Below are positions 3,438 to 58,278 of a stretch of DNA of 64,000 nt, piece by piece. The stretch is from Ginglymostoma cirratum (lineage: Eukaryota): positions 2,937,427-3,001,426 of the forward strand of contig JAHRHZ010000100.1 in assembly GCA_024137785.1 (NCBI GenBank), in the 5' to 3' direction. Positions within the stretch are counted from its first letter, which is position 1. Every line of letters starts with the position of its first letter. Position numbers and translations under genes: made by a program. The notes under the pieces were generated by a model. The model worked only from the letters and a program-made list of their open reading frames with translations, made no database searches and had not been told where the DNA came from.

Positions 3438-4502
3438 AAAAACCAAAAGAACAGTGGATGCTGTAGATCAGGAACAAAAACAAAGTTGCTGGAAAAGCTC
3501 AGCAGGTCTGGCAGCATCAGTGAAGGAAAAAACAGAGTTAACGCTTTGGGTCCGGTGACCCTTCCTCAGAACTGATGGTGGCTGGGAAAACATCAATTTA
3601 TATTCAGAAAATAGGGAGGTGGGTGGGGTAGGGGGTAAACGATAGAAGTAGACTAAACAAAAGTAGAGGATAGAGCCCAAAGAGAGAGAAAGACTGTTGG
3701 ACAGACAAAGGAGTTGCTAATGATCAGGCTGGGAGGGTGAATAGTTGTTAATGGGTACTGTTAGTGACTAACAACAGGGAATGTGTAATGGCAGGCTATG
3801 TGGTAACAAGGCTGGTGCGTGGGGTAGGGGGCTGGGACATAGGAGAGTTTAGGCCCTAACATGATTGCACTCAATATTGAGTCCGGAGGGCTGCAGGGTA
3901 GCCAAGCGGAAAATGAGGTTTTGCTCCTCCAGCTTTGCTGGAACACTGTAGCAAGCCAAAGACAGAGATGTTGGCCGGGGAGCAGGGTGGTGCACTGAAG
4001 TGGTTTCAGAGATCGTAGGAACTGCAGATGCTGGAGAATCTGAGATAACAAGGTACAGAGCTGGATGAACACAGCAGGCCAAGCAGCATCATAGGAGCAG
4101 GAAAGCTGACGTTTCAGGCCTAGACCCTTCGGCAACTGGTAGTTCAGGGTCTTTTTTGCGTGCAGAAGGTAGATGTTCTGCGAAGTGGTCGCCAAGTCTA
4201 TGCTTCGTTTCCCCAATGCAGAGGAGACCACATTGTGAGCAGCAAATGCAGTAGACCAGATTCTGGGAAGTGCAGGTGAGGTGTTGCTTCACCTGGAAGG
4301 TATGTTTGGGCCCTTGGATATCCGGGAGGGAGGAGGTAAATGGGCAGGTGTTGCACCTTTGCTGGTTACAGGGGAAGGTGCTGTAGGGCCGTGGGGAGGT
4401 GTTGGGGGTGAAGGAAGTGTGGACCAGGGTGTCGCAGAGGGAACGGTCCCTGCGGAAGGCGGACAATGGAGGGGAGGGGAGTATGTGTCTGGTGGTGGTG
4501 TT
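3438..4502 (-). mobile_element. Penelope-like element (Neptune-type), 5'-truncated: Zn-linker/GIY-YIG endonuclease, 3' UTR, HHR and tail
   Basis: ORF 4089-4574 reads FRRDRSLCDTLV...PCNQQRCNTCPF...TCTSQNLVYCICCSQCGLLCIGETKHRLGDHFAEHL, a GIY-YIG domain. The C-terminal LEEQNLIFRLATLQPSGLNIE is in ORF 3849-4082. A 12-bp TSD taattctcttat lies at 3426-3437 and 4503-4514. Confidence 0.9.
4004..4130 (-). mobile_element. Second-subfamily PLE terminus nested inside the Neptune endonuclease
   Basis: Interrupts DPELPVA|HFSA. It belongs to the same subfamily as 31113-31238, 35172-35300 and 46067-46277, and begins inside the HHR (gaagggtctaggcctgaaacgtcagc on the minus strand). Confidence 0.85.
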
Positions 4503-4814: not shown

Positions 4815-5225
4815 ATGTTAACTTTTATTTATGAGGATAGAGTGAAGAAACTGGGACTGTTGTCCTTGGAGAGAAGAAGGATGGAAGGAGATTTGATAGA
4901 GGTCGACCACGTAATGTGCGGGCTGAGTAAAGCAGATTGGGAAAAGCTGTTTTTGCTCATAAAAGAAAATATAAAGAACAAGAGATCTTATATTTGCATA
5001 AAGAAGCAAGTGCAATTTGAGAGAAAAAGACTCAATGAGTATCCAGTGTGTGGAATATACTGCATGTAATGGAGGCAGGTTCAATAGAAGCATTCAAGAT
5101 GGCACTGGATGGTTATTTGGTTAGAAATGCGGTGATATTCAGAAAAGGCAGGAGATAGGTAGTAGACAAGGTGCAGGCACCAAGGGCTAAACGGTCTCCT
5201 TCTGCATTGTAACAGCTGTGATTCT
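4815..5225 (+). mobile_element. CR1 LINE 3' fragment
   Basis: YEDRVKKLGLLSLERRRMEGDLIEV is the CR1 ORF2 C-terminal signature, followed by a CR1-type 3' tail. Confidence 0.8.
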
Positions 5226-6224: not shown

Positions 6225-6560
6225 ATTGCAAAAATGTACTTTATTCATAAAAAAATCTTTATGTACATGCACAGTCACTGATGCAGTTCCATACAGTCTT
6301 TGTACCTGAAGAATGAGCGAACATTAGAATTTGATATTCCCTGCATTTACAAAACAAAACCTATGGCATTTCTTACTTATACAGGATTATATTTACAGAT
6401 ACTTGAGGCACCGAGAAGGTCTGATAACTGGACAGACCCCCATTGTACTTTGGCAGAAAGACCTTAAATGATGGTCTTTCCCCACTGTCTCTTGGCAGCA
6501 GCTGCCCCAAACTTCATGACATCCCTCAGCACGTAGTCCTGGACCTTGGAATGTGACAAT
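6225..6560 (-). mobile_element. Tx1/L1-clade LINE 3' end
   Basis: The minus strand encodes SHSKVQDYVLRDVMKFGAAAAKRQWGKTII*, followed by a 3' UTR ending tttatgaataaagtacatttttg. Confidence 0.65.
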
Positions 6561-6569
6561 GTACAACAC

Positions 6570-6948
6570 TGGAGGTTGAGAGTTGACCTTATAGAGGTTT
6601 ACAAAGTCATGAGGCGTATCGATACAGCGAATAGCAGGTGTCTTTTCCCTAAGATGAGGGATCTTAAGCCTAGGAAGCATATCTTTCAGGTGAGAGAAGG
6701 AAGATTATAAAAGACATGAGGGGCAATTTTTTTACAAATGGTTCATGTGTGGAATGAACTTCCTGAAGAAGTGGTGGATGCAGATACAGTTACAATGTTG
6801 AAAAGTGATTCAGGTAAGGATATGAATAAGAAAAGTTTTGAGGATATGGGCCAAGCACAGGCAGGTGGGACTAGTTTAGTTTGGGATTATAGTCAGCACA
6901 GACTGTTGGACCAAAGGATCTGATTCCATGCTGCATGACTCTATGATT
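6570..6948 (+). mobile_element. CR1 LINE 3' fragment
   Basis: Encodes RLRVDLIEVYKVMR and VHVWNELPEEVVDADT; the tail ends gactctatga. Confidence 0.85.
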
Positions 6949-7071: not shown

Positions 7072-7822
7072 TTTTGAAAAGATTTGTATCTTGGGTTGAG
7101 AACAAGGTTGTGGACATGATCGCCGAGCTGATGGGTTTGGATGCAAATGTTTCATCACCCTGCTAGGTAACAATATCAGTGCGCCTCTGGTGAAGTGTCG
7201 GCGTTCTGTCCCACTTGTTATTTATATGCCTCGGTTTGCTGGGGCGGTTGGTATTAATTCCAGTTCTGTTTCTCAGTGGTTTGTACACAGGGTCTAATTC
7301 AATGTGTTTGTTGATGCAGTTCCAGTTGGAATTCCAGGCCTCCAGGAATTCCCTGGTGTGCCTCTATTTGGTTTGTGCAATTATGGACGTGTTGTCCCAG
7401 TCAAATTTGTGTCCCGCATTGCCTGTGTGCAGTGAGACAAATGAGAATTGGTTGTGTCTCTTGGTGGCTAGTTGGTGTTCTTATATCCGTATTGTGAGTT
7501 TTCTTCCTGTTTGGCCTTTGTAGTGCTTCTCACAGTCCTTGCATGTATATTGAAATGTATATATGCATGTACATGTGCATTTTGTATATAACACCGGTTT
7601 TGCTGGTTTTGGGTATGGGATCCTTTACATTTGTCAGTAGCTATCGCAGGATGGTTCCAGAACTGGAAGTGATGCCAACCACCCCAGCAAACTGAGGCAT
7701 ATAAATAACAAGTGGGATAGAATACCGATGCTTTGCCGGAGGCACACTGATGATGTTACCTAGCAGGGTGACGAAATGTTTACATCCAAACGCACTGGCT
7801 TGGCAAGCATGTCTACTACCTC
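7072..7822. mobile_element. Poseidon/Penelope-type PLE 3' fragment (minus, ~7072-7660) with an inverted terminal copy (plus, ~7660-7822)
   Basis: The minus arm encodes CKDCEKHYKGQTGRKLTIRI..HQLATKRH (GIY-YIG). 7660-7822 is the reverse complement of about 7105-7270. Confidence 0.85.
7744..7783 (+). ncRNA. Type I hammerhead ribozyme motif in a PLE terminal repeat (core intact, stems I and III eroded)
   Basis: CTGATGA (7747-7753), stem II GTTACC/GGTGAC around TAGCAG, GAAA (7773-7776), then TG-T-T. Confidence 0.65.
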
Positions 7823-8360
7823 ATTTGTCCGGTGTGCATCCCAGGAAACAGACCATAAAACGCAAAGTCCTGCATCACAGAACTGTTCAGATGAACTTCA
7901 ACAAGCTAAGGTTGTTCTTGCCTGAGGAATAGTGCTTACAGTTACGGTCTGTTAGTTTGGCCTGGTCTGCATGAGCTGGTTTGCTTTCTCAGTCCTGCTC
8001 AGTTCCACCCTGCACCAAAGCAGCCACGTCTAGAAGCAAACGGTTTTGCATATGTCCTTTAGGACTTGTCACAACTCTCTGTAGAGAGTTAGCAACCTCA
8101 AACAACCATTGCAAGCACCAAGCGCATGTTGTATCATAGTGACACGATAAGAAGAAATCAGTAACCAACGAAGCTGCAAGCAGTCGATCCTTATAGATAG
8201 CACTGGTGGGAGGGTTCTCCTTGCTGCTGAGAGTTTTAGTGTAAGTGTTGGTTTCAAACCCACGTTGCAGGCTGACTGGTATCATGAATTGCCTGTGATG
8301 CCACAGATGATGGATATTATTTGTGGGGCTAGCTAATCCATTGACTAATATCCATTGACA

Positions 8361-14094: not shown

Positions 14095-15063
14095 CAAGGA
14101 GCAAGAGTTGGCCACACAGCTTTGGCATTCAATAAGATCATGGCTGATCTAACATTAACCTCAACCCTACATTTCCACATATCCCCAATAATCTTTCATC
14201 CTCTTGGTAATGAAGAATCTTATCTACCTCAGCTTTAAAAACATTTACAGATTAAGCCTCCATTGCCTTTTGAGGAAGAGACTCCCAAAGACACTCAATT
14301 CTCAGAGAGAGAACATGTTTCCTCATCTCAGTCTTAAATAGGTGACCCCCTTAACTTTAAACAACGACTCCTAATTTTAAAGTGTCCCAAAACAGGACAC
14401 ATTCGTTTAACGTCCACCCAGTCAAGTCCCCTCAGCATCTTGCATGTGTCAGGTAAGTCACCTCGGACTCATCTAAACTCCAAAGGATACAGGCCTAGTC
14501 TATCTAGCCTTTCATCATAAGGCAATCCACATATTCCAGGTATTTTTAAGTAAACTTTCTCTGAACAGCTTCCAATGCATTAACATCCCTCTGTAAGTAC
14601 AGTAGACAGTACTCCAAACACAGTTTCATCAATGCCCTGTGTAGCTAAAGCATAATCTCCCTGCTTTTGCATTCAATTTCCCTCACAACAAAACATAGTA
14701 TTCTATTAGCTTACCTGTTTACTTGCTGCACCTGCGTACTAAGCTTTATGCATTGGGGCACCCAGACCTGTCTGTACCTCAGAGCTCTGAAGCCTCTCAC
14801 CATTTTGAAAATATGCTTTCTTATTCTTTCTGCAAAAATGGATAATTACACACTTTCCCACATTGTACTCCATTTACCAGATCTTTGCCCACTTGATGAA
14901 TCTATCTATTTCCTTTTGTAATCTCCTTCTGTTCTCTTCTCATCTCACTTTCCTCCTCTACCTTTGTGTGATCAGCAAATCTACCTACTGTACTTTTGGT
15001 TGCTTAATCCAAATTGATTATATAAATTGTAAAGAGTCGAGGCCCCAGCACTGACCCCGAGGA
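14095..15063 (-). mobile_element. CR1 LINE 3' ~1 kb
   Basis: The minus strand has a PRGQCWG/QGSVLGP-like motif (~15040-15060) and a FADD-like motif (gatcagcaaat), and the CR1 tail lies at ~14095-14160. Confidence 0.8.
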
Positions 15064-17597: not shown

Positions 17598-18122
17598 ACA
17601 CACTACCAGAAGGATGTGGATACTTTGGAGAGGGTACAGAAAGGGTTCACCAGGATGATGCCTGGTATGGGTGATTTTAACTATGAAGAAAGGTCGGACA
17701 GACTGGGCTTGTTTGCACTGGAACGCAAAGGTTGAGGGGGGTGACCTGATAGACTTTTATAAGATTATGAATGGCATGGATAGAGTGAAAAGTATGAGGG
17801 CTTTTCCCAAGGTGGAGGAGTCAATTACCGCGGGCACTGGTTCAAGGTGCAGGAGTGGGGTGGGAGTGGGGAAGATTGAAACAAATGTGCAAGGGAAGTT
17901 TTTCACACAAAGGGTGGTAAGTGCCTGGAACACATTGCCAGAGGAGGTGGTGGAAGGTGACATAATCACAGTATTCAAGAAGCATTTGAATGAATACACG
18001 AACAGGGAGGGAATAGAAGAATATGGATCCTGTAAGTGAATACAGTTTCAGTACGGAAGGGCAAAATGTGTCGCCACAGGCTTGGAGAGCTAAAGGGCCT
18101 GTTCCTGGGCTATATTGTTCTT
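17598..18122 (+). mobile_element. CR1 LINE 3' fragment
   Basis: GDLIDFYKIMNGMDRV...FFTQRVVSAWNTLPEEVVE, followed by a CR1 tail. Confidence 0.9.
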
Positions 18123-21599: not shown

Positions 21600-22385
21600 T
21601 TTCCCCACAGAAAGTAAGATGGTTGTGGTTACTTGCAGTCAATCATCAAAGCCCTAGAAGATCACTGCAGGATTTTCTCAGGATAGTGTTTTAGGCAGAA
21701 CCATCTTTAACTACTTCATCAATGACTTTCCTTGTGCCATTAAGGTTGGAAGTAGGGGTGTTTTTTGGTGATTGTGCAATGTTCAACACCGTTTGCAACT
21801 TAAGTACTGAAGCAGTCCAAAGACAGCAAGGCCTGGGCAATATTCAGGTGTGGGCAGATAAGTGGCAAGTATGATTAGTACCAGGTAGTGATTTCCAACA
21901 AGCGAGGATCCAACCATTATCTTGTGGCAAAAACAAAGTTGCTGGAAAAGCTCAGCAGGTCCGGCAGAGTTTTGAGGAAGGGTCACCAGACCCGAAACGT
22001 TAACTCTGTTTTCTCCTCCACAGATGCTGCCAGACCTGCTGAGCTTTTCCAGCGACTTTGTTTTTGTTCCTGATTCACAGCATCCGCAGTTCTTTTGGTT
22101 TTCATTATCTCGTGACATTCAGTGGCATTGTTATTGCTGAGTCTCCCATGGTCGAGATCCTGAGGGTTACCATTGACCAGCAACTGAACTCGACTAGCCA
22201 TCGAAATACTGAATGCAATACTAAATACAAGGGCAGGTCAGAGGCAAGTAATTCGCTTCCTGTCTCCCCAAAGTCTGTCCACATGCACAAAGCATAAGAT
22301 TGAGTGGAATATTCTCCACTTGCCTGGATGAGTGCAGCTCCAAAAGACTCAAGCTTGACTCCATCCAGGACAAAGCAAGTCGCTT
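21600..22385 (+). mobile_element. CR1/L2-group LINE RT fragment, interrupted by a PLE insertion
   Basis: QDSVLGRTIFNYFINDFP, then ILRVTIDQQLN and EYSPLAWMSAAP. Confidence 0.75.
21930..22102. mobile_element. Fold-back Neptune-type PLE terminus with HHR
   Basis: A short inverted arm (21930-21967) precedes the plus-strand HHR and tail. The TSD cattatcttgtggca / cattatctcgtgaca (13/15) lies at 21915-21929 and 22103-22117. Confidence 0.85.
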
Positions 22386-22718: not shown

Positions 22719-24117
22719 AAGTAAACCTGCTGGACATATTCCTAAAATAACTGCAGCATAGCATAAACAAAAATATAAGACACTTACAGAGTCATAGACT
22801 CCTGAAGCCTGACAGAGTTTCCTGAGATTTCCACATCATGCACCATTCATTAGGGATTTGCCATTATTAAGGTGCAAGCTTTGAGCAAATTCAAGTCCAT
22901 GAGTGCTAATTATAACTGGATGGGTAAATATTAGGGCTAAATACCGTAGCATATCCACGCAAACGATACCTATTACTAGTTTAAATGTTATGAGTAATTA
23001 AATGGATAACTGTTAATCAGACAGAAACTATTTCGTTAGTTAAATTTGAGTTAGCTGATCGATTCGTTCCTTATTAGACACATTCTGCAGTAAAATGAGT
23101 AAATGCTATAGTTGTGGATAAATGCCATGAATAATTATACAGATGATTATGTGAGGAAATAATGTTGTAGAATGCTATTGATAAACATTGGACAATTGGA
23201 TCGATGATTACAGCTTTTTATGTCAGTTGGTTTGAGCCTTGCTTCAATGGTAGTACTTGAACCTTTAAGTCAGTTGATTGTTGTTTCGAACCCAACTCCA
23301 GATGTTGACTGTGCTTTGGACACTTTGACCAATTTATGTATTAAAACAATTTTATCCAAGTGCTCTTGCTGGTGGGACAAAGAGACACAAAATTCGGTTT
23401 GTGTTCAGCTCGATTTTATTAACAAAGTATCCTTTATTAAAAATGTCATGTAAGCATTTCACAAATTTCCACAGCATTTACCCTCTATCCAGCTCTGTCA
23501 GTGGATATGATTCACAATGATTCACATGTTTCAGCTGGGCTGTTGGAATCTCCTTCCTCTTTGACATCTCTTCCACAATGTTGGGTCCTGCACGTCAGGG
23601 TGGATCTCCTCCTGGGTCTTCTTGGGTGGCTGCATGGTCTTCCTCCATGAGGCTTGCAGTGAGTCTTTGCTGAGGGAGTGGCGTCAGTGTGTTCCCTTAT
23701 CTCTCTCATGCCAGATCTTCCAGAACATTCTGTGGCCATTGGCCAGTGAGGTCATGGGTGGGTTCAAAGCATTCAATGGGGTCGCACCAACACCCTTCAC
23801 TATTGCCATGCTGAGGAGGTGTAAAATTCACATACTCAGGCACTGGCTAGAAGTCAAGGTGCCAGAAAGTCTGATTGATACTTTTCCAATACATAACTTT
23901 CAGGTTGGTTGTAACTGATTTCTCCTGAGCCTTTATGACCTCTTTGACCTTGGATTCCTCTGTTCTCTGTAGTCGATAGCTGCTGGCTGCTGTTTAGTTT
24001 GGCTAATTTTCTGTCAAGCCTGATTTCTCAGGCTGTGGATCAATCTAGAATGTCCAATTTTAGGGCCAGGGTCAATTGACCACAACACATCTGAGGAATG
24101 CAGGTGGATGTCTACGC

Positions 24118-26240
24118 TGCCTCTGGTGAAGTGTTGGTGTTCTGTCCCACTTGTTATTTATATGCCTTACTTTGTTGGGGTGTTTGCATCACTTCCGGTT
24201 CTGTTTTTCAGTGGTTTGTATATCGGGTCTAGTTCAATGTGTTTGTTATTGGAGTTCCGGTTGGAATGCCAGGCCTCCAGGAATTCCCTGGCATACCTCT
24301 GTTTGGTTTGTATGATGATGGATGTGTTGTCCCAGTTGTATTTGTGTCCTTCTCTGTCTGTGTATAGTGAGACCAGTGAGAATTGGTCATGTTTCTTGGT
24401 AGCTAGTTGGTTTTCATGTATCCTTATTGTCAGTTTTCTTCAAGTTTGGCCTATGTAATGTTTCTCACAGTCCTTGCATGGTATTTTGTATATTACATTA
24501 GTTTTTTGGTTTTGGGTATGGGATTCTTTACGTTCATCAGTAGCTGTCGCAGAGTGGTTGTTGGTTTGTGTGCTACCCTGATACCTAGGGGTCTGAGTAG
24601 TCTTGCGGTCACCTCTGAAATGTCCTTGATGTATGGTAGGGAGACTAGTGTGTCTGGCTGTGTTGTGTCTTCCTGTTGTTGTCTATCATGGAAGTAACAG
24701 CTGATTGTGTTTTTGGGTATCCATTCCTTTTAAAAACTCCGTATAAGTGCTCCTGTTCTGCTTTGCGCAATTCCGGGTTGCTGCAGTGTGTTGTGGCCCA
24801 TTTGAATAATGTCCTGATGCAGCTCCGTTTATGGGTGTTTGAATGGTTACTGGTGTAATTAAATATCTGGTCCAAATATGTGGTCTTTCTATGTACGCGA
24901 GACTGGACTACCTCGTTGTTCTTACATTCTACCATAATGTCTAGGAAGGGTAGTTGGTTATTGTTCTTTTCTTCTTTTGTGAATTTTATTCTGGTGAGGA
25001 TGTTGTTTATGTGTCGGTGCGTTTCTTCCAGTCTTGTGCCTTTGATAATCACGAAGTTATCACCCACATAGTGGACCCAGAGACTGGTTAATCTAGTAGG
25101 GAACGCTGTACTTTCTAACCTTTGCATTACCGCTACTGCAATCAGTCCTGATATCGGGGATCCCATTGGCGTTCCGTTGATTTATTTGAATACACGATCA
25201 TTGAAGGTGAAGTGGGTTGTGAGGCACAGATCCAGCAGTTTCAGGGTGATGTCCATGTTGATGCAGTCGGTGTCGTGGGGTGCCTGCCTTCCTGATTCAT
25301 CCAGCAGTGTGGCAATTGTTTCTTTGGCTGCATCAATATTTATGGATGTAAATAGTGCTGTTACATCGGAGAATAACATTATCTCATCCTCTTCTATTCT
25401 GGTGTCCTAGATGATGTTGAGGAAATCTTGAGAGGAGTGGATGGAGAGGGCCGTGTTGTCAACTAAGTATTTCAGTTTCCTTTGTAGTTCTTTGGCTAGT
25501 CTCTATGTTGATGTACCTGGTAGAGGGACAATGGGTCTGAGGGGGAGCCCTGCCTTATGTACCTCAGAGAGTCTGTAGAAGTGGGGTGTGTTGGATCTGT
25601 CTAGCCTCATGTTTTGGTGGTCTGCCTTGCTGATATCTCCTGAGTTGTGTAAATTCTTCAGGGTTGTTGTAATCCGGTTCTCTAACTGTGGTATTGGGTC
25701 TATTACCATCTGTCAGTAGGTGTTGGTATCTGGAGGTAGTGCATTAGCTTTCTCAACGTATTGGGCTCTATTAAGGATTACTGTCATGCCTCCTTTGTCC
25801 ACTGGTAAGAACACTATGTTTCTGTCTTTCTTGAGCCTTTCCAGGGCTTTCTTCTCTTCTGAGTTGAATGTATTCCATTTACTTCTTCGGTTCAGTGTTG
25901 GGGCTATTGTCTGTCTAATAGTCTGTTGTACTTCTTCCATGAGTCTGTCATTCTTTAGTGTCAATTCTAGCACAGCCACAAGGTCAGTGTTTTTGGCATC
26001 TCTGCAGTTATAATTCAGTCCACATACTAGGACGATCTTCTCAGTGTCTGTAAGTTGTCAGTCTGAGATGTTCTTAATACATGTTTCTGTTTTGTCTGTG
26101 TCATTGTGGGTGAATTTGGATAGTTTTTTCTTGTAGGGCTATTCTTTTCTTTATTCTGGTCTTTTGTTGTTGTATAGTGATGGCTTGTTCCAGTGCGCTT
26201 GTCCATTCTTTGTTGATTGGTTGGTTGCGAGTTCTCTGAC
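24118..26240 (-). mobile_element. Near-full-length Penelope/Poseidon-type retroelement, disrupted RT plus GIY-YIG ORF
   Basis: Successive frames give LPVDKGGMTVILN, FYRLSEVHKAGLPLRPIV, SDVTALFTSI, MGSPISGLIA...WVHYVGDNF (YVDD box), LPFLDI, and NVIYKIPCKDCEKHYIGQT (~24445-24503). Confidence 0.92.
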
Positions 26241-43860: not shown

Positions 43861-45523
43861 TGTGGCAATACTATGGTTTTAAGAGGTGTATTTATCTTTT
43901 TTGTTTAAAGAGAGGTTTTAGGACAGAGGTATAGAGAAGTCTGTTTGCATCCAATAAAGTAAACAGCTTGTGAGGCCTTGTTTTTATTTTAAGTAGGAAC
44001 AATAGAAGCAGCCTGAATGGGTGGGGTAAGCTCTCACAGAACCAGGATTTTTATTTTTAGTTTTCAGTAGCATTCGATACTGGGGTCTTGACGACATGGA
44101 AGCTATTTTCTTTCCTCTTTTGGTTACAACTAAAAGCTGGGGGTTGTCTTCCTGCTGCTGGAGTTGCATGTGAGACAATCTGTTTTTCCCCATGGTAGGC
44201 TATTGCAGAAAATTCGGAGGCATGGGATTGAGGGTGATTTAGCAGTTTGGATCAGAAATTGGCTAGTTGGAAGAGGACAGAGGGTGGTGGTTGATGGGAA
44301 ATGTTCATCCTGGAGGTCAGTTACTAGTGGTGTACCGCAAGGATCTGTTTTGGGCCCACTGCTGTTTTTCATTTTTATAAATGACATGGATGACGGCATA
44401 GAAGGATGGGTTAGTAAATTTGCGGATGACACTAAAGTCGGTGGTGTTGTGGATAGTGCGGAATGATGAGGCAGGTTACAGAAGGACATAGATAAGCTGC
44501 AGAGCTGGGCTGAGAGGTGGCAAATGGAGTTTAATGCAGAAAAGTGTGAGGTGACTCACTTTGGAAGGAGTAACAGGAATACTGAGTACATAGATCCCTG
44601 CAAGTTGCCACCCAGGTTGATAGGGCTGTTAAGAAGGCGTACGGTGTGTTAGGTTTTATTGGTAGAGGGATTGAGTTTCGGAGCCGTGAGGTCATGTTGC
44701 AGCTGTACAAAACTCTGGTGCGGCCGCACTTGGAGTATTGCGTACAGTTCTGGTCACCGCATTATAAGAAGGATGTGGAAGCATTGGAAAGGGTGCAGAG
44801 GAGATTTACCCGGATGTTGCCTGGTGTGGAGGGGAGGTCTTATGAGGAAAGGCTGAGGGACTTGAGGCTGTTTTCGTTAGAGAGAAGAAGGTTAAGAGGT
44901 GACTTAACAGAAACATACAAGATGATCAGAGGATTGGATAGGGTGGACTGTGAGAGCCTATTTCCTCGGATGGTGACGGCTAGCACGAGGGGACATAGCT
45001 TTAAATTGAGGGGTGATAGATAAAGGACAGATGTCAGAGGTAGATTCTTTACTCAGAGAGTAGTAAGGACGTGGAATGCCTTGCCTGCAGCAGTTGTAGA
45101 CTCGCCAACTTTAAGGGCATTTAAATGGTCGTTGGATAAACATATGGATGATAATGGAATAGTGTAGGTTAGATGGGCTTCAGATTGGTTTCACAGGTCG
45201 GCGCAACATCGAGGGCCGAAGGGCCTGTATTGAGCTGTAATGTTCTGTGTTCTGTGTTCTGTGTTCTATGTTCTATGAATCTGCCTTTGACAAGGGTGTG
45301 TTTTACTATATTGGAACAGTTACTGTTTCATAGTAAAATAATCTATTATTTTGTTAGGTTTTCCAATAGAGTTGTTATTCCAATTTCTTTTTTCTTTTGT
45401 TTTATTTTAACTATAGTGGATGAATAAAGTGTGTTTCTTATATTTACCTTTAAAATAAGAAAAAGTTAGCATCTAGACTACCTTCTGAGTACATTTTAAG
45501 GGGGCTTGGTCTGGTCCACAACA
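43861..45523 (+). mobile_element. Solo LTR interrupted by a young CR1
   Basis: tgtggca...ccacaaca with flanks caaa/caac; homologous to 10454-11079. Confidence 0.8.
44187..45277 (+). mobile_element. Young CR1 (HER1-like) LINE, 3' 1.1 kb
   Basis: [16 protein letters not shown]...KFADDTK and LYKTLVRPHLEYCVQFWSP, with a (ttctrtg)n tail at 45243-45277. Confidence 0.95.
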
Positions 45524-46277: not shown

Positions 46278-47627
46278 AAGAAATAACATGTTCAGAATAA
46301 CAGTCCTACCAACTCAGGCCACGCTAGCACCTAGCCTCCAGTCCTCCCTGAGCCTTGACTCCAGATTGCACAAGGCTTCACCTTGAGGATCTCAAGGCTG
46401 GATGTCCACACACTGGGCTGGAGATCGCCATGCTGGGCCACCCCAGTTTGAACATTGTTGTTTCCTTCCGTGTTCAAAATCCTTTGATAATTAGGTGCCA
46501 ACAAACAGAATGACCCTCTGTCTTCCAATGTTCTGCTTCATACTCAAGGGTATCAGGATTTTGCATAATTCTATCTTGGTATAATCAACTAAGTAAATTA
46601 TTCATCATGATGACAAACCTGCATGGTGATAACCAAAGCAGACACTGAAGTTGCTTTGAATACTTACCTCCAACTAGAAAAGCCAATCTGAAGGTTAGAT
46701 TTCAAAACCATCAGAGAATAAAATGAATTGTAATGCTAAGACTTTTTTTTGTCTGTAACTATAATCTCTGTAGACTGATGTCTGGGCAGAAAGGTGCAGA
46801 CTCAAAGATGATGCTGCGTCTGGCGATGATTTTAATCTCCTCCTGCCTGAGTAACTACATTGGTTACATAAGAAAGATTCTTGTGGAATCAGCATTATGT
46901 TGTCTTAATTATGTCAGACTTCATTAGGCTCTCTCAGTCTGTCTGAGAGTACTATCATCCAGGAAAATATAACAGTCTGTGATAGCATTTAATTTACATT
47001 GGTAGGGAAGGGCAGGAAGTTTGGCATGAATTCACTCCAGTCATTGTCTTGTCTGCAAAATCAATGGATAACTTCCATTCTACTGTAAATAGAGCAGGGG
47101 ACACCTCAGGAGGTGCATTTCCAAACCTCCAGTATTCAGCAAGTATAGAGATCAGAGTAACTTAGTTCTCAGTGTCAATGTATGGGTATGGACAACCCAG
47201 ATTATAATTGTGGAATGTTTCTGAATTATGTAGTTGTTCTAGGTCAAGTACAGAACAAGGATTTTGTAATTGAAAATAATATTTGGTGGGTAGGGAAAAA
47301 CGAATTAGGTTTCAAACGTTGTTCTATATCTCACACCAGTGACATACTGGAAAGCAAGACACACTATTCCAGGAATCATCACAAAAAATATTAAAGATTC
47401 TATAAGAGGATGCAAAATCCTCCAATTTACCGATTTTTTAGATTTAGGTGAACAGAAAGTATGAACCAGGTTTCTGTGCTTAGCAACAATTAATATTAAC
47501 TACAAATAAATAGACACTGGCTACTTGTAAACTGTTATGAATTGTCAGCATATAACTCTTCTGGTTAAAATTCTAACCGCCTTAAAAATTCCCCCGTTCA
47601 CTCATATACAGACAGATATAGACAGGT

Positions 47628-48873
47628 TTTGGAGTAGATTTGTAGCTCGGGTTGTGGGTGTTGAGGTTGGTTGGTTCATCGAGCTGGTTTCTTGTTTCGC
47701 AGACGTTTTGTTACCGTGCTGGGTAACATCCTCGGTGCAGACACCGATGAAACGTTGGTGTGTTTTCCCGCCTGGTTTTTAAACTCTGGGGTCCGTTGCG
47801 ATGGATTGCCTCACTTCCGGTTTTCCTTCATAGTGGAATGTATATGGGGTCAAGTTCAATGTGTTTATTAATAGCATGCTTCGTAGAGTGCCATGCTTCT
47901 AGGAATTCTCGTGCCTGTCTCTGCCTAGCCTGTCCCAGGATCTTGGTGTTGTCCCAGTCGAAGTGGTGGTTCTCCTTGTCCATGTGGATTGAGATGAGTG
48001 AGTATTGGTCATGTCTTTTTGTAGCCAGTTGGTGTTCATGTACTCTTGTTGATAGTTTCCGTCCTGTTTGTCCGATGGGGTGTTTCTCGCAGTCTCTGCA
48101 GGGGGATCTTGTAGATGACATTGGCCCTGTCCATGGCGGGGAGTGGGTCCTTAGTTCAGGAGAGCAGTTGTCGTAGGGTTGATGTGGTTTTGTGTCCCAC
48201 TCTGATGCCCAGCGGTCAGAGGAGTCTTGTGGTGAGTTCCGACGTGTTTTTAATATAGGGTAGCGTGATGAGTGTGTCGGGGCATGTAGTATCTTTCAGA
48301 TGCTGTTCGTGTAACACGAAACACGTCGGAACTAAGCACAAGACTCCTATGACCACTGGGCATCAGAGTGGCACACAAACCCACATCAATCCTATGACAA
48401 CTGCTCACCCGAACTAAGGTCCCCTGCAGAGACTGCGAGAAACACTACATCAGACAAACAGGAAGGAAACTAACAACAAGAGTACATGAAAACCAACTGG
48501 CTACAAAAAGACATGACCAATACTCACTCATCTCAATCCACATGGACAAAGAGAACCGTTATTTCGACTGGGACAACACCAAGATCCTGGGACAGACCAG
48601 GCAGAGACAGGCACGAGAATTCCTAGAAGCATGGCACTCCACAAAGCATGCTATTAATAAACACATTGAACTCAACCCCATATACAATCCACTACGAAGG
48701 AAAACCGAAAGTGAGGCAATCCATCTCAACAGAGCCCAGACTTTAAAAACCAGGCAGGAGAACTCACCGATGCTTCATCGGAGTCTGCACTGAGGATGTT
48801 ACCCAGCACGGTAACGAAACGTCTGCCAAACAAGAAACCAGCTCAGTGAACCAACCCAACCTCAACAACCTCA
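47628..48873. mobile_element. Palindromic Poseidon-type PLE insertion (two inverted GIY-YIG/terminal arms)
   Basis: ORFs 47828-48121(-) and 48542-48793(+) encode the same peptide (REFLEAWHSTKHAINKHIEL). The 14-bp TSD agatatagacaggt lies at 47614-47627 and 48874-48887. Confidence 0.92.
48787..48826 (+). ncRNA. Type I hammerhead ribozyme with complete catalytic core
   Basis: GCA-CTGAGGA-T-GTTACC(CAGCAC)GGTAAC-GAAA-CG-TC-TGC. Predicted cleavage is after C48823; stem III is reduced to palindromic ACGT. Confidence 0.8.
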
Positions 48874-51419
48874 AGATATAGACAGGTACAAAAATAAGTG
48901 TTATGGGCAGAGGGAAAGACTGGCAAGCTGGTTCAGTGGCCCCTGTTCACAGGGTTCATTGAAGTGATCCTTTTGTCTTGTCAGGACTTTGGTGTACTTC
49001 GATACTGTTTCTCCAGGCACATCTACATGTTTGCAGGAGGCACAGAGTGGCGAGCCCACAACTTACAAAGTCTCTGATTTACTGCTTATAGCAACTACTG
49101 AGGGAAGCATTTTTGCCTGATTTAACGTAAGCTTTATGCCAAAGAAGAGAGACAGCTTCTTCCCTTTTTGAAATCCTCCCTTAAATGTTCATTCCCCCCC
49201 CCGCCCTTGAGCTTTTGAACTACCTGGGAGTCAATCACGTAGTAGTTGACAGGAAAAAAGTTTGTGTCATTGAAAATTAGTTACGAGTTCACATACCAGC
49301 CAGCTACTTGTTGTCAGGTGAATTTCCATCTGTTCACACTCCTTGACTCCAGCTCAACTCTAATTCAATATCCCCTTGCTGGGTGAACCTCAGCTGTGTA
49401 AGTAACACTTGTAGTGAGTGTCAGGTAACTTGCTTTTGAAAAAGTGCAGCAGTTCCTTAGTTTTTAAAAGCTGTCATTTTTCCCATTTCAGTTGACAATA
49501 AAAAATACAAAAAAAAATACGGTTGTTATAAATGAAAGCATTGTCCCTAGCGTACGGTTACAATATTAATTATGAGTTCTTGGCTATTAGAACCCAATCA
49601 ATGAGAGCAGATATCATATTAAAATGTCATCCGGACACAGAAAAACAACTGCCAAACAACAGACTCAACCTTATGAGGAAAAATGTCTCTACACATAGTT
49701 TCAATGAATAGTTCTGGCTTGGGTGTTACTAATTTTTTGCCATCAGGTCATGAAAGCTTCTTCAGACTGTAGAAACATTCTTTTCCAGCACAGCAACACC
49801 AAGACTATTATTTCACCCAAGCTCACTTAACTCATCCACTCTACCCACTTATCCATTTACTTCACCCATCTACCATCTTCCCACTCATAGTCATTCATCA
49901 ACTCACCTGTTCAACTGTTCTTTAACTTGCAGCTATTTACCCAATCACTAAGATTCACACTGGACATTTAAATTTACCTTAAGGCAGCTAGTGCCATTAT
50001 AAAAAGAAAGGGGGAACATGTCCAGACTTTCCCCCAAAGCTACTGGGTGGTGATGGGGTTCTTTAAGTGAATGTGTGCTCACAGCTCTGGAGAAGCTGGT
50101 CTCAGAAGATGCAGCCAGTTATGTGGACCAATGTTAGGGTGCATAAAGGTTTGAGTCCAAATGTCGGTCTGACAACGATTGCCACTTAGTGAGAGATGTG
50201 GGCAAGTGTAACTCACCAGGATTGAGGTAAATTCTGTCACATCAGCAGTGATGATTTCTACTGGGACATTTCGTCAGGAAACCCATACATTACAAATTGT
50301 TACAAGTCTGTTTTAAAAAAGAAATTGGCAGACATCTTGCATCTTTGAATAATGGTTAAAGTATTCTCTTTATGCATATTTAATACTGTATTGCATGATC
50401 TAAAACATACACCTATGCCAACATATCCTGTGCTCATTGAAGTTCAGTTATTTGATGTACTGAGGCTATGTCAATATGAATAGAGAGAAGAGAGAAGAAT
50501 CCCTTTAGGTATTACATAATGAGAATGAGTTAGAAATGCAATACTTGCTTAACAATTCATCAATATAGAGCATTAGCTTTGGGTGCAATCATTTAAACTC
50601 GTCTGTTATTCAAGATTTACTTCATTAGTGTATTTATTTTTTAAATAAAACCTGTTTGGAATTCTTCAGAAAAATGTGTACTTTCATTTATACAGCGATG
50701 CTGAGACTGAAATTTTTGTTAAAAAAACCAGAGGTTGAGGTTGCTGCACAAATCAGTCTTACTTATAAAATGCTCTTGAAAAAAATAAATTACTCTGAGA
50801 CTCAGGGGGACTGTTCAAAAGCATTATTAAATTGTACTTTGCAAAATAACATTAAAATATAAAGTAATTTGGCTGTAATTATTTAATCACAAGTGTTGTT
50901 AGTCGTTGATTAGGTGAGCAGTTGATATGAAAACCCATTCATCAATCTTGATGAAATTGGATTCTAATAAAGACGCTGAGGTCATCAGTAGATCAGTTTT
51001 TAGATATGCTTCCGAGCCAGTTGCAGCTTTATGATCCTCCAACTGACACATGATAACCACGTTAAGCAAGGTACTCTTCCTTGATGAGATAAGATGTTAC
51101 AGTTCATGTGCTCATTGTTATTATGACATTAGTCACTTGGCATAGTCTAAATTCTGTGTATTAATTGATATAAAACAATTATCCTTGAAAATCGCATTGA
51201 TCGCAAGGTTTCAGTGGAATGCATGAAAAGCAATGTGATATATTTTTCACTTGAACCATGACTGTACCCTTTTATCTTGCATCATCAGCCCATATGCTGA
51301 TTAATATCTCATCTTTCACCCTATCATGGACCTTACCTCTTGTCATTTCTCCCTTTCCCGCATTACGTTGACTCTCTATTTGACTGGAGAAAAATCAATA
51401 CATTGATAACTGTTTTCCA

Positions 51420-57000: not shown

Positions 57001-58278
57001 AGAACAAAGGACGTAAGAACCAGGAGCAGGAGTAGGCTATCTGGCCCTTCGAGCCTGCTCCACCATTCAGCAAGATCATGGCCGATCTGTTATGACCTCA
57101 GATCCACTTACCCATCCCCTCACCATAATCCATAATTCCTTGACTGTTCAAAAAATTATCTATCTCAGTTTTAAAAACATTCAATGAGGAAGCCTCAACT
57201 ACTTCTCTGGGCAGACATTTTCACAGATTCACAATTCAGTCCATCCTCAATTCAGTCCTAAATCTGCTCCCCCTTATTTTGAGGCAAGGCGCTCTTGTTC
57301 TACTTTCACCCACCAGTGGGAACATCCTCCCTGCTTCTATCTTATTTATTCCCTTCATAATTTTATATGTTTCGATAAGATAACCCCTTCATTCTTCTAA
57401 ACTCCAATGAATATAGTCCCAGTCTACTCGGTCTATCCTCATAAGCCAACCCCCTCAACTCTGGAATCAACCTAGTGAATCTCCTCGGCACCCCCTCCAG
57501 TGCCAGTACCTCTTTTCTCAAGTAAGGAGGCCAAAACTGCACACAGTACTCCAGGAACAAAAACAAAGTTGCTGGAAAAGCTCAGCAGGTCTGGCAGCAT
57601 CTGTGAAGGAGAAAGCAGAGTTAATGTTTCAGGTCTGGCGACCCTTCCTCAGAACTGTACTCCAGGTGTGGTCTCATCAGCACACTACACAGCTGCAGCA
57701 TAACCTCCCTGTTTTTAAACTCCATCACTTTAGCAACGAAGGATAAAATTCGATCTGCCTTCTTAATTACCTGATGCACCTGTGAACCAACCATTTTTGA
57801 TTCATGTGCAAGGACACCTAGGTCCCTCTGCACAGCAGCATGCTGCAATTTTTTACCGTTCAAATAATAGTCCTTTTTACAATTGTTCTTGCCAAAATGG
57901 ATGACCTCACATTTATCAACATTGTTCTCCATCTACCAGACCTTTGCCCACTCACTAAAATATCTATATCCCTCTGCAAACTTTCAGAGTCCTCTGCGTA
58001 CTTTGCTCTACTACTCATCTTAGTGTCATCGGCAAATTTTGACACACTATACGTGGTCCCCATTCCAAATCATCTATGTAAATTGTAAACAATTGAGGTC
58101 CCAACACTGATCCCTGAGGCACACCGCTAGCCACTGATCGCCAACCAGAAAAGCACTCATTTATCCCCACTCTCTGCTTCTTGTCATCCTTTATCCTTGC
58201 TAATACTTGCCCATAAAACCATGCATGTTTATCTTATGCAGCAGCCTTTTGTGCGGCACCTTGTCGAATGTCTTTTGA
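57001..58278 (-). mobile_element. CR1 LINE 3' ~1.2 kb, interrupted by a PLE terminus
   Basis: [20 protein letters not shown] and LEYCVQFWPPYLRK, with a CR1 tail at 57001-57090. Confidence 0.92.
57556..57656 (-). mobile_element. 101-bp HHR-plus-tail PLE mini-insertion
   Basis: The 10-bp duplication gtactccagg lies at 57546-57555 and 57657-57666. The minus strand reads AGTT-CTGAGGA-AGGGTC(GCCA)GACCT-GAAA-CA-TT-AACT. Confidence 0.9.

Follow-up and report, generated by a model that had tools for sequence, protein, structure and literature searches.

We identify the hammerhead motif at 48787-48826 (+) of the window, by which we mean the whole 64,000-nt stretch of Ginglymostoma cirratum DNA that was analysed, as by its sequence an intact minimal hammerhead (min-HHR) of Penelope-like retroelements (PLEs), a known kind. 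Our preferred explanation, which we consider very probable, is that it lies in the pseudo-LTR of a decayed Penelope/Poseidon-like insertion as a silent fossil, its sequence kept by chance. One intact copy is ordinary, given that min-HHRs, defined in metazoan PLEs by Cervera and De la Pena (2014, PMC4209133), number thousands per genome in coelacanth and frog according to the same source. The insertion around it represents a clean fossil of PLE integration, with a target-site duplication (TSD), a junction palindrome, a one-sided tail and a probably uncleaved template, and the overlap of the ribozyme with a likely start codon bears on the question of what role PLE hammerheads play.

The hammerhead motif and its relatives

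In the motif scan the sequence is laid out as GCA / CUGAGGA / U / GUUACC-CAGCAC-GGUAAC / GAAA / CG / UC / UGC, a minimal type I hammerhead with the required nucleotide at every core position (C3 U4 G5 A6 N7 G8 A9, G12 A13 A14 A15.1 and U16.1 H17), a 3-bp stem I and a perfect 6-bp stem II with a 6-nt loop. C17 is position 48823, after which the cut is predicted, the G10.1-C11.1 pair is G48798-C48815, and an extra, unpaired nucleotide, U48797, stands between A9 and G10.1. A monomeric stem III is absent; positions 15.2-16.2 are the palindrome ACGU (48819-48822, +), which would form the intermolecular stem III of a double hammerhead and which overlaps the K-R codons of the ORF frame. Re-reading of the letters bears out the core boxes, both stems and the ACGU as they were given in the original prediction, and the claim that this is a PLE-type minimal hammerhead, with stem III possible only in a dimer, fits the published min-HHR layout. 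U48797, and the anti-core helix and the pairing with the antisense arm described below, had no place in that prediction.

The motif is the sole match on either strand with no core mismatch and at least 3 bp in each of stems I and II; the loosest scan setting (stem I of 2 bp) gives two matches in the window. In 1000 dinucleotide shuffles of the whole window, a match with at least 6 bp in stem II and at least 3 bp in stem I arose once, compared with 17 shuffles for at least 4 and 3 bp and 39 for at least 3 and 3 bp, respectively. The check that had been proposed against Rfam Hammerhead_1 did not bring confirmation: there was no covariance-model match to 48787-48826 at the gathering score or at E up to 10, the whole window is without a hammerhead match at the gathering score, and the Rfam hammerhead families, at E up to 10, have none in 47500-49000 or in 48760-48860. 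Rfam miRNA matches were set aside, as they reflect a long hairpin.

A sister motif, found by the motif scan and the arm alignment, lies on the minus strand at 47699-47738 and, read from 47738 to 47699, differs at two of the 40 positions, U4C and G12A. It had been described as having lost both core boxes; each box is indeed altered, by one transition apiece and not by loss of the box. G12 is the general base of the hammerhead (PMC6155905), and since this base is changed the sister would be inactive; we regard it as very likely dead. As it lies on the opposite strand it cannot serve as a cis partner, and no strictly intact same-strand partner for a dimer was found within the window. A relaxed scan returned 13 hammerhead-like candidates, one of which (48787-48826) is fully intact; the candidate at 44882, in unrelated sequence, is probably noise. 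The hammerhead relatives in the window preserve stem II pairing through wobble changes.

Among the other sites, a hammerhead from a second repeat family at 21963-22010 (+) has a 9-bp stem I, a 5-bp stem II, an intact ACGU, a GUU site and the change C3U, and is located at the apex of an inverted repeat of 40 bp (21928-22066). When isolated it folds better than 48787-48826 (active-like fraction in the folding model 0.26-0.41, against 1e-5 in context), but it has C3U; U3 with G8 is present too in a Saccoglossus PLE motif (PMC4209133). Seven decayed hammerhead-like motifs (3569-, 4135-, 28676+, 35296-, 46159-, 57652- and 60572-, with signs for strands) lie in short dispersed repeats and have a GG(G/A)TC-type stem II, most of them hit at the CpGs of GAAACG, and a second type of GIY-YIG remnant (4146-4259, -) adjoins the one at 4135. 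At 7080-7830 lies another inverted pair of PLE copies, from a related subfamily, with damaged hammerheads at 7179 (-) and 7747 (+) and a longer tail apparently on one arm; a search for its TSD found none. A longer decayed PLE with reverse transcriptase (RT) and GIY-YIG (24110-26078, -), which has 43% identity to the protein P0031, breaks off just before its hammerhead. Fragments like the C-terminal part of P0040, the translation of a related shark copy, belong to another dispersed repeat (4827-4970, 6558-6689, 14355-14558, 17646-17846, 44826-45005 and 57257-57458), which may be the ends of CR1-type LINEs.

An inverted insertion and its coding remnants

The right arm of a head-to-head inverted, 5'-truncated PLE insertion at 47628-48873 carries the motif close to its 3' end. 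The right arm (48314-48873, +) is a 5'-truncated PLE end consisting of linker, GIY-YIG remnant, hammerhead and 50 nt past the cut site, and a 43-nt deletion removes the GIY-type strand of its GIY-YIG remnant. The left arm (47628-48312, -) carries that PLE end in inverse orientation; stops and a frameshift interrupt it, and its divergence from the right arm is 8.9%. On both sides the unit is bordered by identical 14-bp direct repeats (47614-47627 and 48874-48887, both +), a word that the window contains only at these two places. Both arms start at a 7-bp palindrome, TTCGTGT-A-ACACGAA (48306-48320), at the head-to-head junction; palindromes of at least 7 bp number 24 in the window (0.037 per 100 bp). 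A tail of about 25 nt (47628-47652, -) is found by arm alignment on the left arm only, and a predicted 6-bp stem around a 30-nt loop of 90% A/C (47644-47685, -) is reminiscent of the AC-rich stem-loop at which reverse transcription initiates in Anolis Poseidon; the sequence of the right arm ends within the equivalent loop. The insertion thus has the inverted 5'-truncated copy, TSD and one-sided tail of a PLE insertion, and inverted truncated copies, TSDs, junction palindromes and one-sided tails are standard for PLEs (PMC8557442, PMC3846280). The right arm also carries two deletions, of about 60 nt beside the junction (48314-48321) and the aforementioned 43 nt in the endonuclease (48420); hairpin instability near the palindrome centre might produce such losses.

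The arms extend 50 nt (right) and 74 nt (left) beyond the cut site, and as both were copied through it the RNA template was likely uncleaved at the hammerhead. Two independent priming events were ranked below fold-back as the origin of the arms, because both start at one palindrome; PAc, the Anolis carolinensis Poseidon, extends both strands in vitro (PMC11167929), which would allow for independent priming. We favour fold-back, and the following course of events may be proposed. The RNA of the ancestral element would act in pairs, two copies exchanging strands with ACGU-ACGU as stem III and GCA with the partner's UGC as stem I, and would cleave slowly after C17, probably aided by PLE protein. 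For this copy, reverse transcription would have begun downstream of the ribozyme on uncleaved RNA; fold-back of the cDNA at the palindrome likely gave the second arm, and both arms would have decayed after insertion.

With tblastn, the 832-aa RT-bearing protein P0031 and the protein P0003 cover the linker and GIY-YIG end in both arms, the coding remnant matching P0031 residues 662-815, the C-terminus of an RT plus GIY-YIG protein. P0003 has a sub-cutoff Pfam GIY-YIG match; the window fragments themselves gave no Pfam GIY-YIG match. Of four protein matches to the remnant, the two that bear a species name are both from sharks (Chiloscyllium punctatum and Stegostoma tigrinum), and the translations P0001 and P0040, from related shark copies, run through related hammerhead motifs. 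The C-terminal GIY-YIG endonuclease with a CCHH motif after the RT, which characterizes Penelope/Poseidon, is present by way of the P0031 and P0003 matches, and the hammerhead lies downstream of the GIY-YIG domain in the PLE pseudo-LTR. No CX2-5CxxC zinc finger was found in the RT-EN linker of P0031 or in the window linker, which points to the Penelope/Poseidon clade. Pfam searches of the 18 long ORFs of the window gave no host gene, one weak RT match and three weak unrelated matches. A sigma-70 promoter scan was disregarded, the host being eukaryotic.

A9, the extra U and G10.1 together spell AUG (48796-48798, +), the likely start codon of the PLE ORF (frame MLPSTVTKRL, against MMSSRLVTKRL at the N-terminus of P0031). 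A VTKRL-type peptide follows the endonuclease in P0006, P0007 and P0070 and lies near the start in P0036; the motif [VLI]TKRL occurs in 5 of the 154 proteins compared, at the N-terminus in one. BLASTP of the 17-aa N-terminal peptide against P0031 gave no alignment, and a search with P0031 residues 1-160 returned one other protein, P0154, a chimeric Clonorchis sinensis entry without the peptide, so that wider conservation of the start is unsupported. Motif and position support, without proving, that U48797 belongs to the PLE start codon; Fig. S3 of PMC4209133 often has A as the extra nucleotide, so the AUG is not universal. With the A of AUG as the first nucleotide, cleavage after C48823 would come 28 nt into the likely ORF and cut the AUG off from the coding sequence. 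P0154, from the liver fluke, is the only N-terminal relative found for P0031, and Clonorchis hammerheads closely resemble 48787-48826; the elements of flukes and fish might belong to one PLE sub-lineage or have passed between these hosts by horizontal transfer.

Folding, decay and rival explanations

An intact hammerhead core does not equal activity, and the RNA 48760-48870, the construct originally suggested for a cleavage assay, is predicted to misfold. In a folding model of nearest-neighbour energies, whose fractions rank constructs only, as it has neither tertiary core nor Mg2+ and no known active dimer as a control, the active-like fraction (stems I and II formed, core open) is 7e-3 for the bare motif, 3e-6 for 48760-48870, 4e-5 for the right arm and about 1e-47 for the whole element. 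The predicted trap is CUCAGUG (48842-48848, +), a perfect complement of 48788-48794 that would sequester stem I and the CUGA box in a 7-bp anti-core helix. This helix has a pair probability of 0.97-0.99 in 48760-48870, of 0.14-0.39 in three longer 5' contexts and of 0 with more 3' flank, and the active-like fraction is at most 4e-5 even in the longer contexts where it is weaker; it is not kept in register in the relatives 7179 and 7747. Stem I is likely in the bare motif (probability 0.69-0.80) but has a probability close to zero in RNAs long enough to include 48848, in which 48788-48794 is taken up by pairing with 48842-48848. In read-through plus-strand RNA all 40 nt of the motif are predicted to pair with the left arm, so that RNA made across the locus today would keep the motif paired, within a long duplex or through the anti-core helix. 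A double hammerhead of the bare motif, with only 10 intermolecular bp, is placed 5.4 kcal/mol above two free monomers, and that of a tandem dimer 10.6-11.4 kcal/mol (trimmed units) or 20.5 kcal/mol (48760-48870) above the free ensemble. A trimmed RNA might plausibly cleave weakly as a dimer; activity in place is unlikely.

Alignment of the arms over 552 columns shows 49 differences, and CpG loss is strong, with 17 of 26 such sites left in just one of the two arms. At rates derived from the arms, a fully intact motif is expected with a neutral chance of 0.06-0.18, depending on the number of positions required, and the motif itself has two differences where 3.6 would be expected (P=0.3). As neutral decay would leave the motif intact in 6-18% of cases, its intactness is not evidence of selection, nor does a single locus argue decisively against it.

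These results allow the alternatives to the silent fossil to be weighed. The motif might be active in the cell, in a transcript from the pseudo-LTR or a host promoter that forms a trans dimer with family RNA or meets PLE protein from an active copy. Its core positions, stem II and palindrome are all intact, related copies exist in sharks (P0001, P0040), PLE pseudo-LTRs may contain promoters (PMC6765202), making a short transcript that avoids the left arm possible, and PLE protein enables cleavage in vitro (PMC11167929). Against this stand the misfolding predicted in all contexts longer than the bare motif, the few intermolecular pairs and energetic cost of the double hammerhead, and the absence of RNA-seq ends at the cut site of the Anolis element, although that element is expressed (PMC11167929); we hold activity in the cell to be rather improbable. 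It had been proposed as the best candidate for an active ribozyme in the window, of which one half stands: this is the most intact motif by sequence, but with a dead insertion, no strictly intact same-strand partner in the window and predicted trapping, its being a good candidate for activity is not supported. Alternatively, the copy may have been exapted by the host, either as a signal for processing or to supply double-stranded RNA, since the inverted arms would give a very long hairpin and both differences between the arms within the motif fall in the core of the other arm; the deficit of differences is however non-significant, G12A is an ordinary CpG transition and no host gene was seen among the long ORFs, and exaptation appears highly improbable to us. 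A reading in which the motif is no ribozyme, having arisen by chance or only from the coding of a protein, would accord with the lack of an Rfam hammerhead match and with its overlap with the conserved peptide VTKRL. We find this barely credible in view of the shuffles, the position, which is where PLE hammerheads always sit, the wobble-preserved stem II of the relatives in the window, and the agreement of the layout with the published consensus (PMC4209133).

We also speculate, while holding it decidedly unlikely, that the hammerhead of this PLE lineage is a protein-gated switch over the ORF start, in which the A9-U-G10.1 start codon and a dimer palindrome over Lys-Arg codons are combined with a strand (AGCUC... 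at 48839-48848) that pairs with the core (off) or with the AC-loop stem (on). If this was the case, the core would be released when PLE protein binds the AC-rich loop, and the ensuing loss of the AUG by cleavage would feed back on the element's own translation; this would account for protein-assisted cleavage in Poseidon, and the right arm, ending inside the loop, would be locked in the off state. A literature search on start or initiation codon and twin priming found no paper with a switch model, which is weak evidence of absence. The silent fossil remains the explanation we prefer.

Comparison with known systems

The min-HHR consensus is NNN CUGANGAH G..C GAAA, palindrome, UH, NNN, and like min-HHRs our motif is of type I, with a short stem I, a long stem II closed by G10.1-C11.1, an extra nucleotide, palindromic 15.2-16.2, no loop III and a place at the 3' end of a truncated PLE (PMC4209133). 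It resembles Clonorchis PLE motifs in particular, one of which has the identical GCA/UGC stem I and a 6-nt loop II (Fig. S3 of the same paper); cartilaginous fish are absent from the Fig. S3 rows examined. Opposite-strand min-HHR pairs lie 100-700 bp apart in that study, as compared to about 1.05 kb here. Min-HHR monomers did not cleave, and dimers and trimers cleaved at low levels (PMC4209133), a review giving a like account for Lunse et al. (PMC6765202). A preprint (10.64898/2026.07.22.740005) reports hammerhead retrozymes in one chondrichthyan, so the hammerhead class has a precedent among cartilaginous fish; a literature search by title and start of abstract found no work on Penelope hammerheads in sharks.

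The satellite-2 non-LTR retrozymes of newt and axolotl likewise have a weak stem III that is rescued by dimers. Arranged as head-to-tail tandem repeats, they have a partner in cis (PMC7229834), whereas the only close copy here is inverted and broken; the head-to-tail tandem repeats with a hammerhead in each that define non-LTR retrozymes were not found, the window holding an inverted pair and dispersed relatives only.

The PAc hammerhead of Anolis carolinensis cleaves only with protein and is dispensable for insertion in vitro (Frangieh et al. 2024, PMC11167929). In PAc the ORF begins at stem II and reverse transcription initiates in a downstream AC-rich stem-loop, and the expressed element has no RNA-seq ends at the cut site. 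Compared by description, an ORF start at stem II with an early cut is shared (26 nt in PAc, 28 nt here), as are the downstream AC-rich stem-loop, the tail at one end and insertion from uncleaved RNA; the insertion ends here, at +78 and +102, compare with a main start site at +111 to +118 in PAc. Unlike PAc, the copy at 47628-48873 is dead and 5'-truncated. In its architecture the insertion is like the inverted-pLTR Penelope of Adineta vaga (Arkhipova et al. 2013, PMC3846280), which likewise is head-to-head with a junction palindrome, a TSD (8-10 bp, against 14 bp here) and a tail at one end (31 nt, against about 25 nt), and whose pLTR similarly holds the first codons of the ORF.
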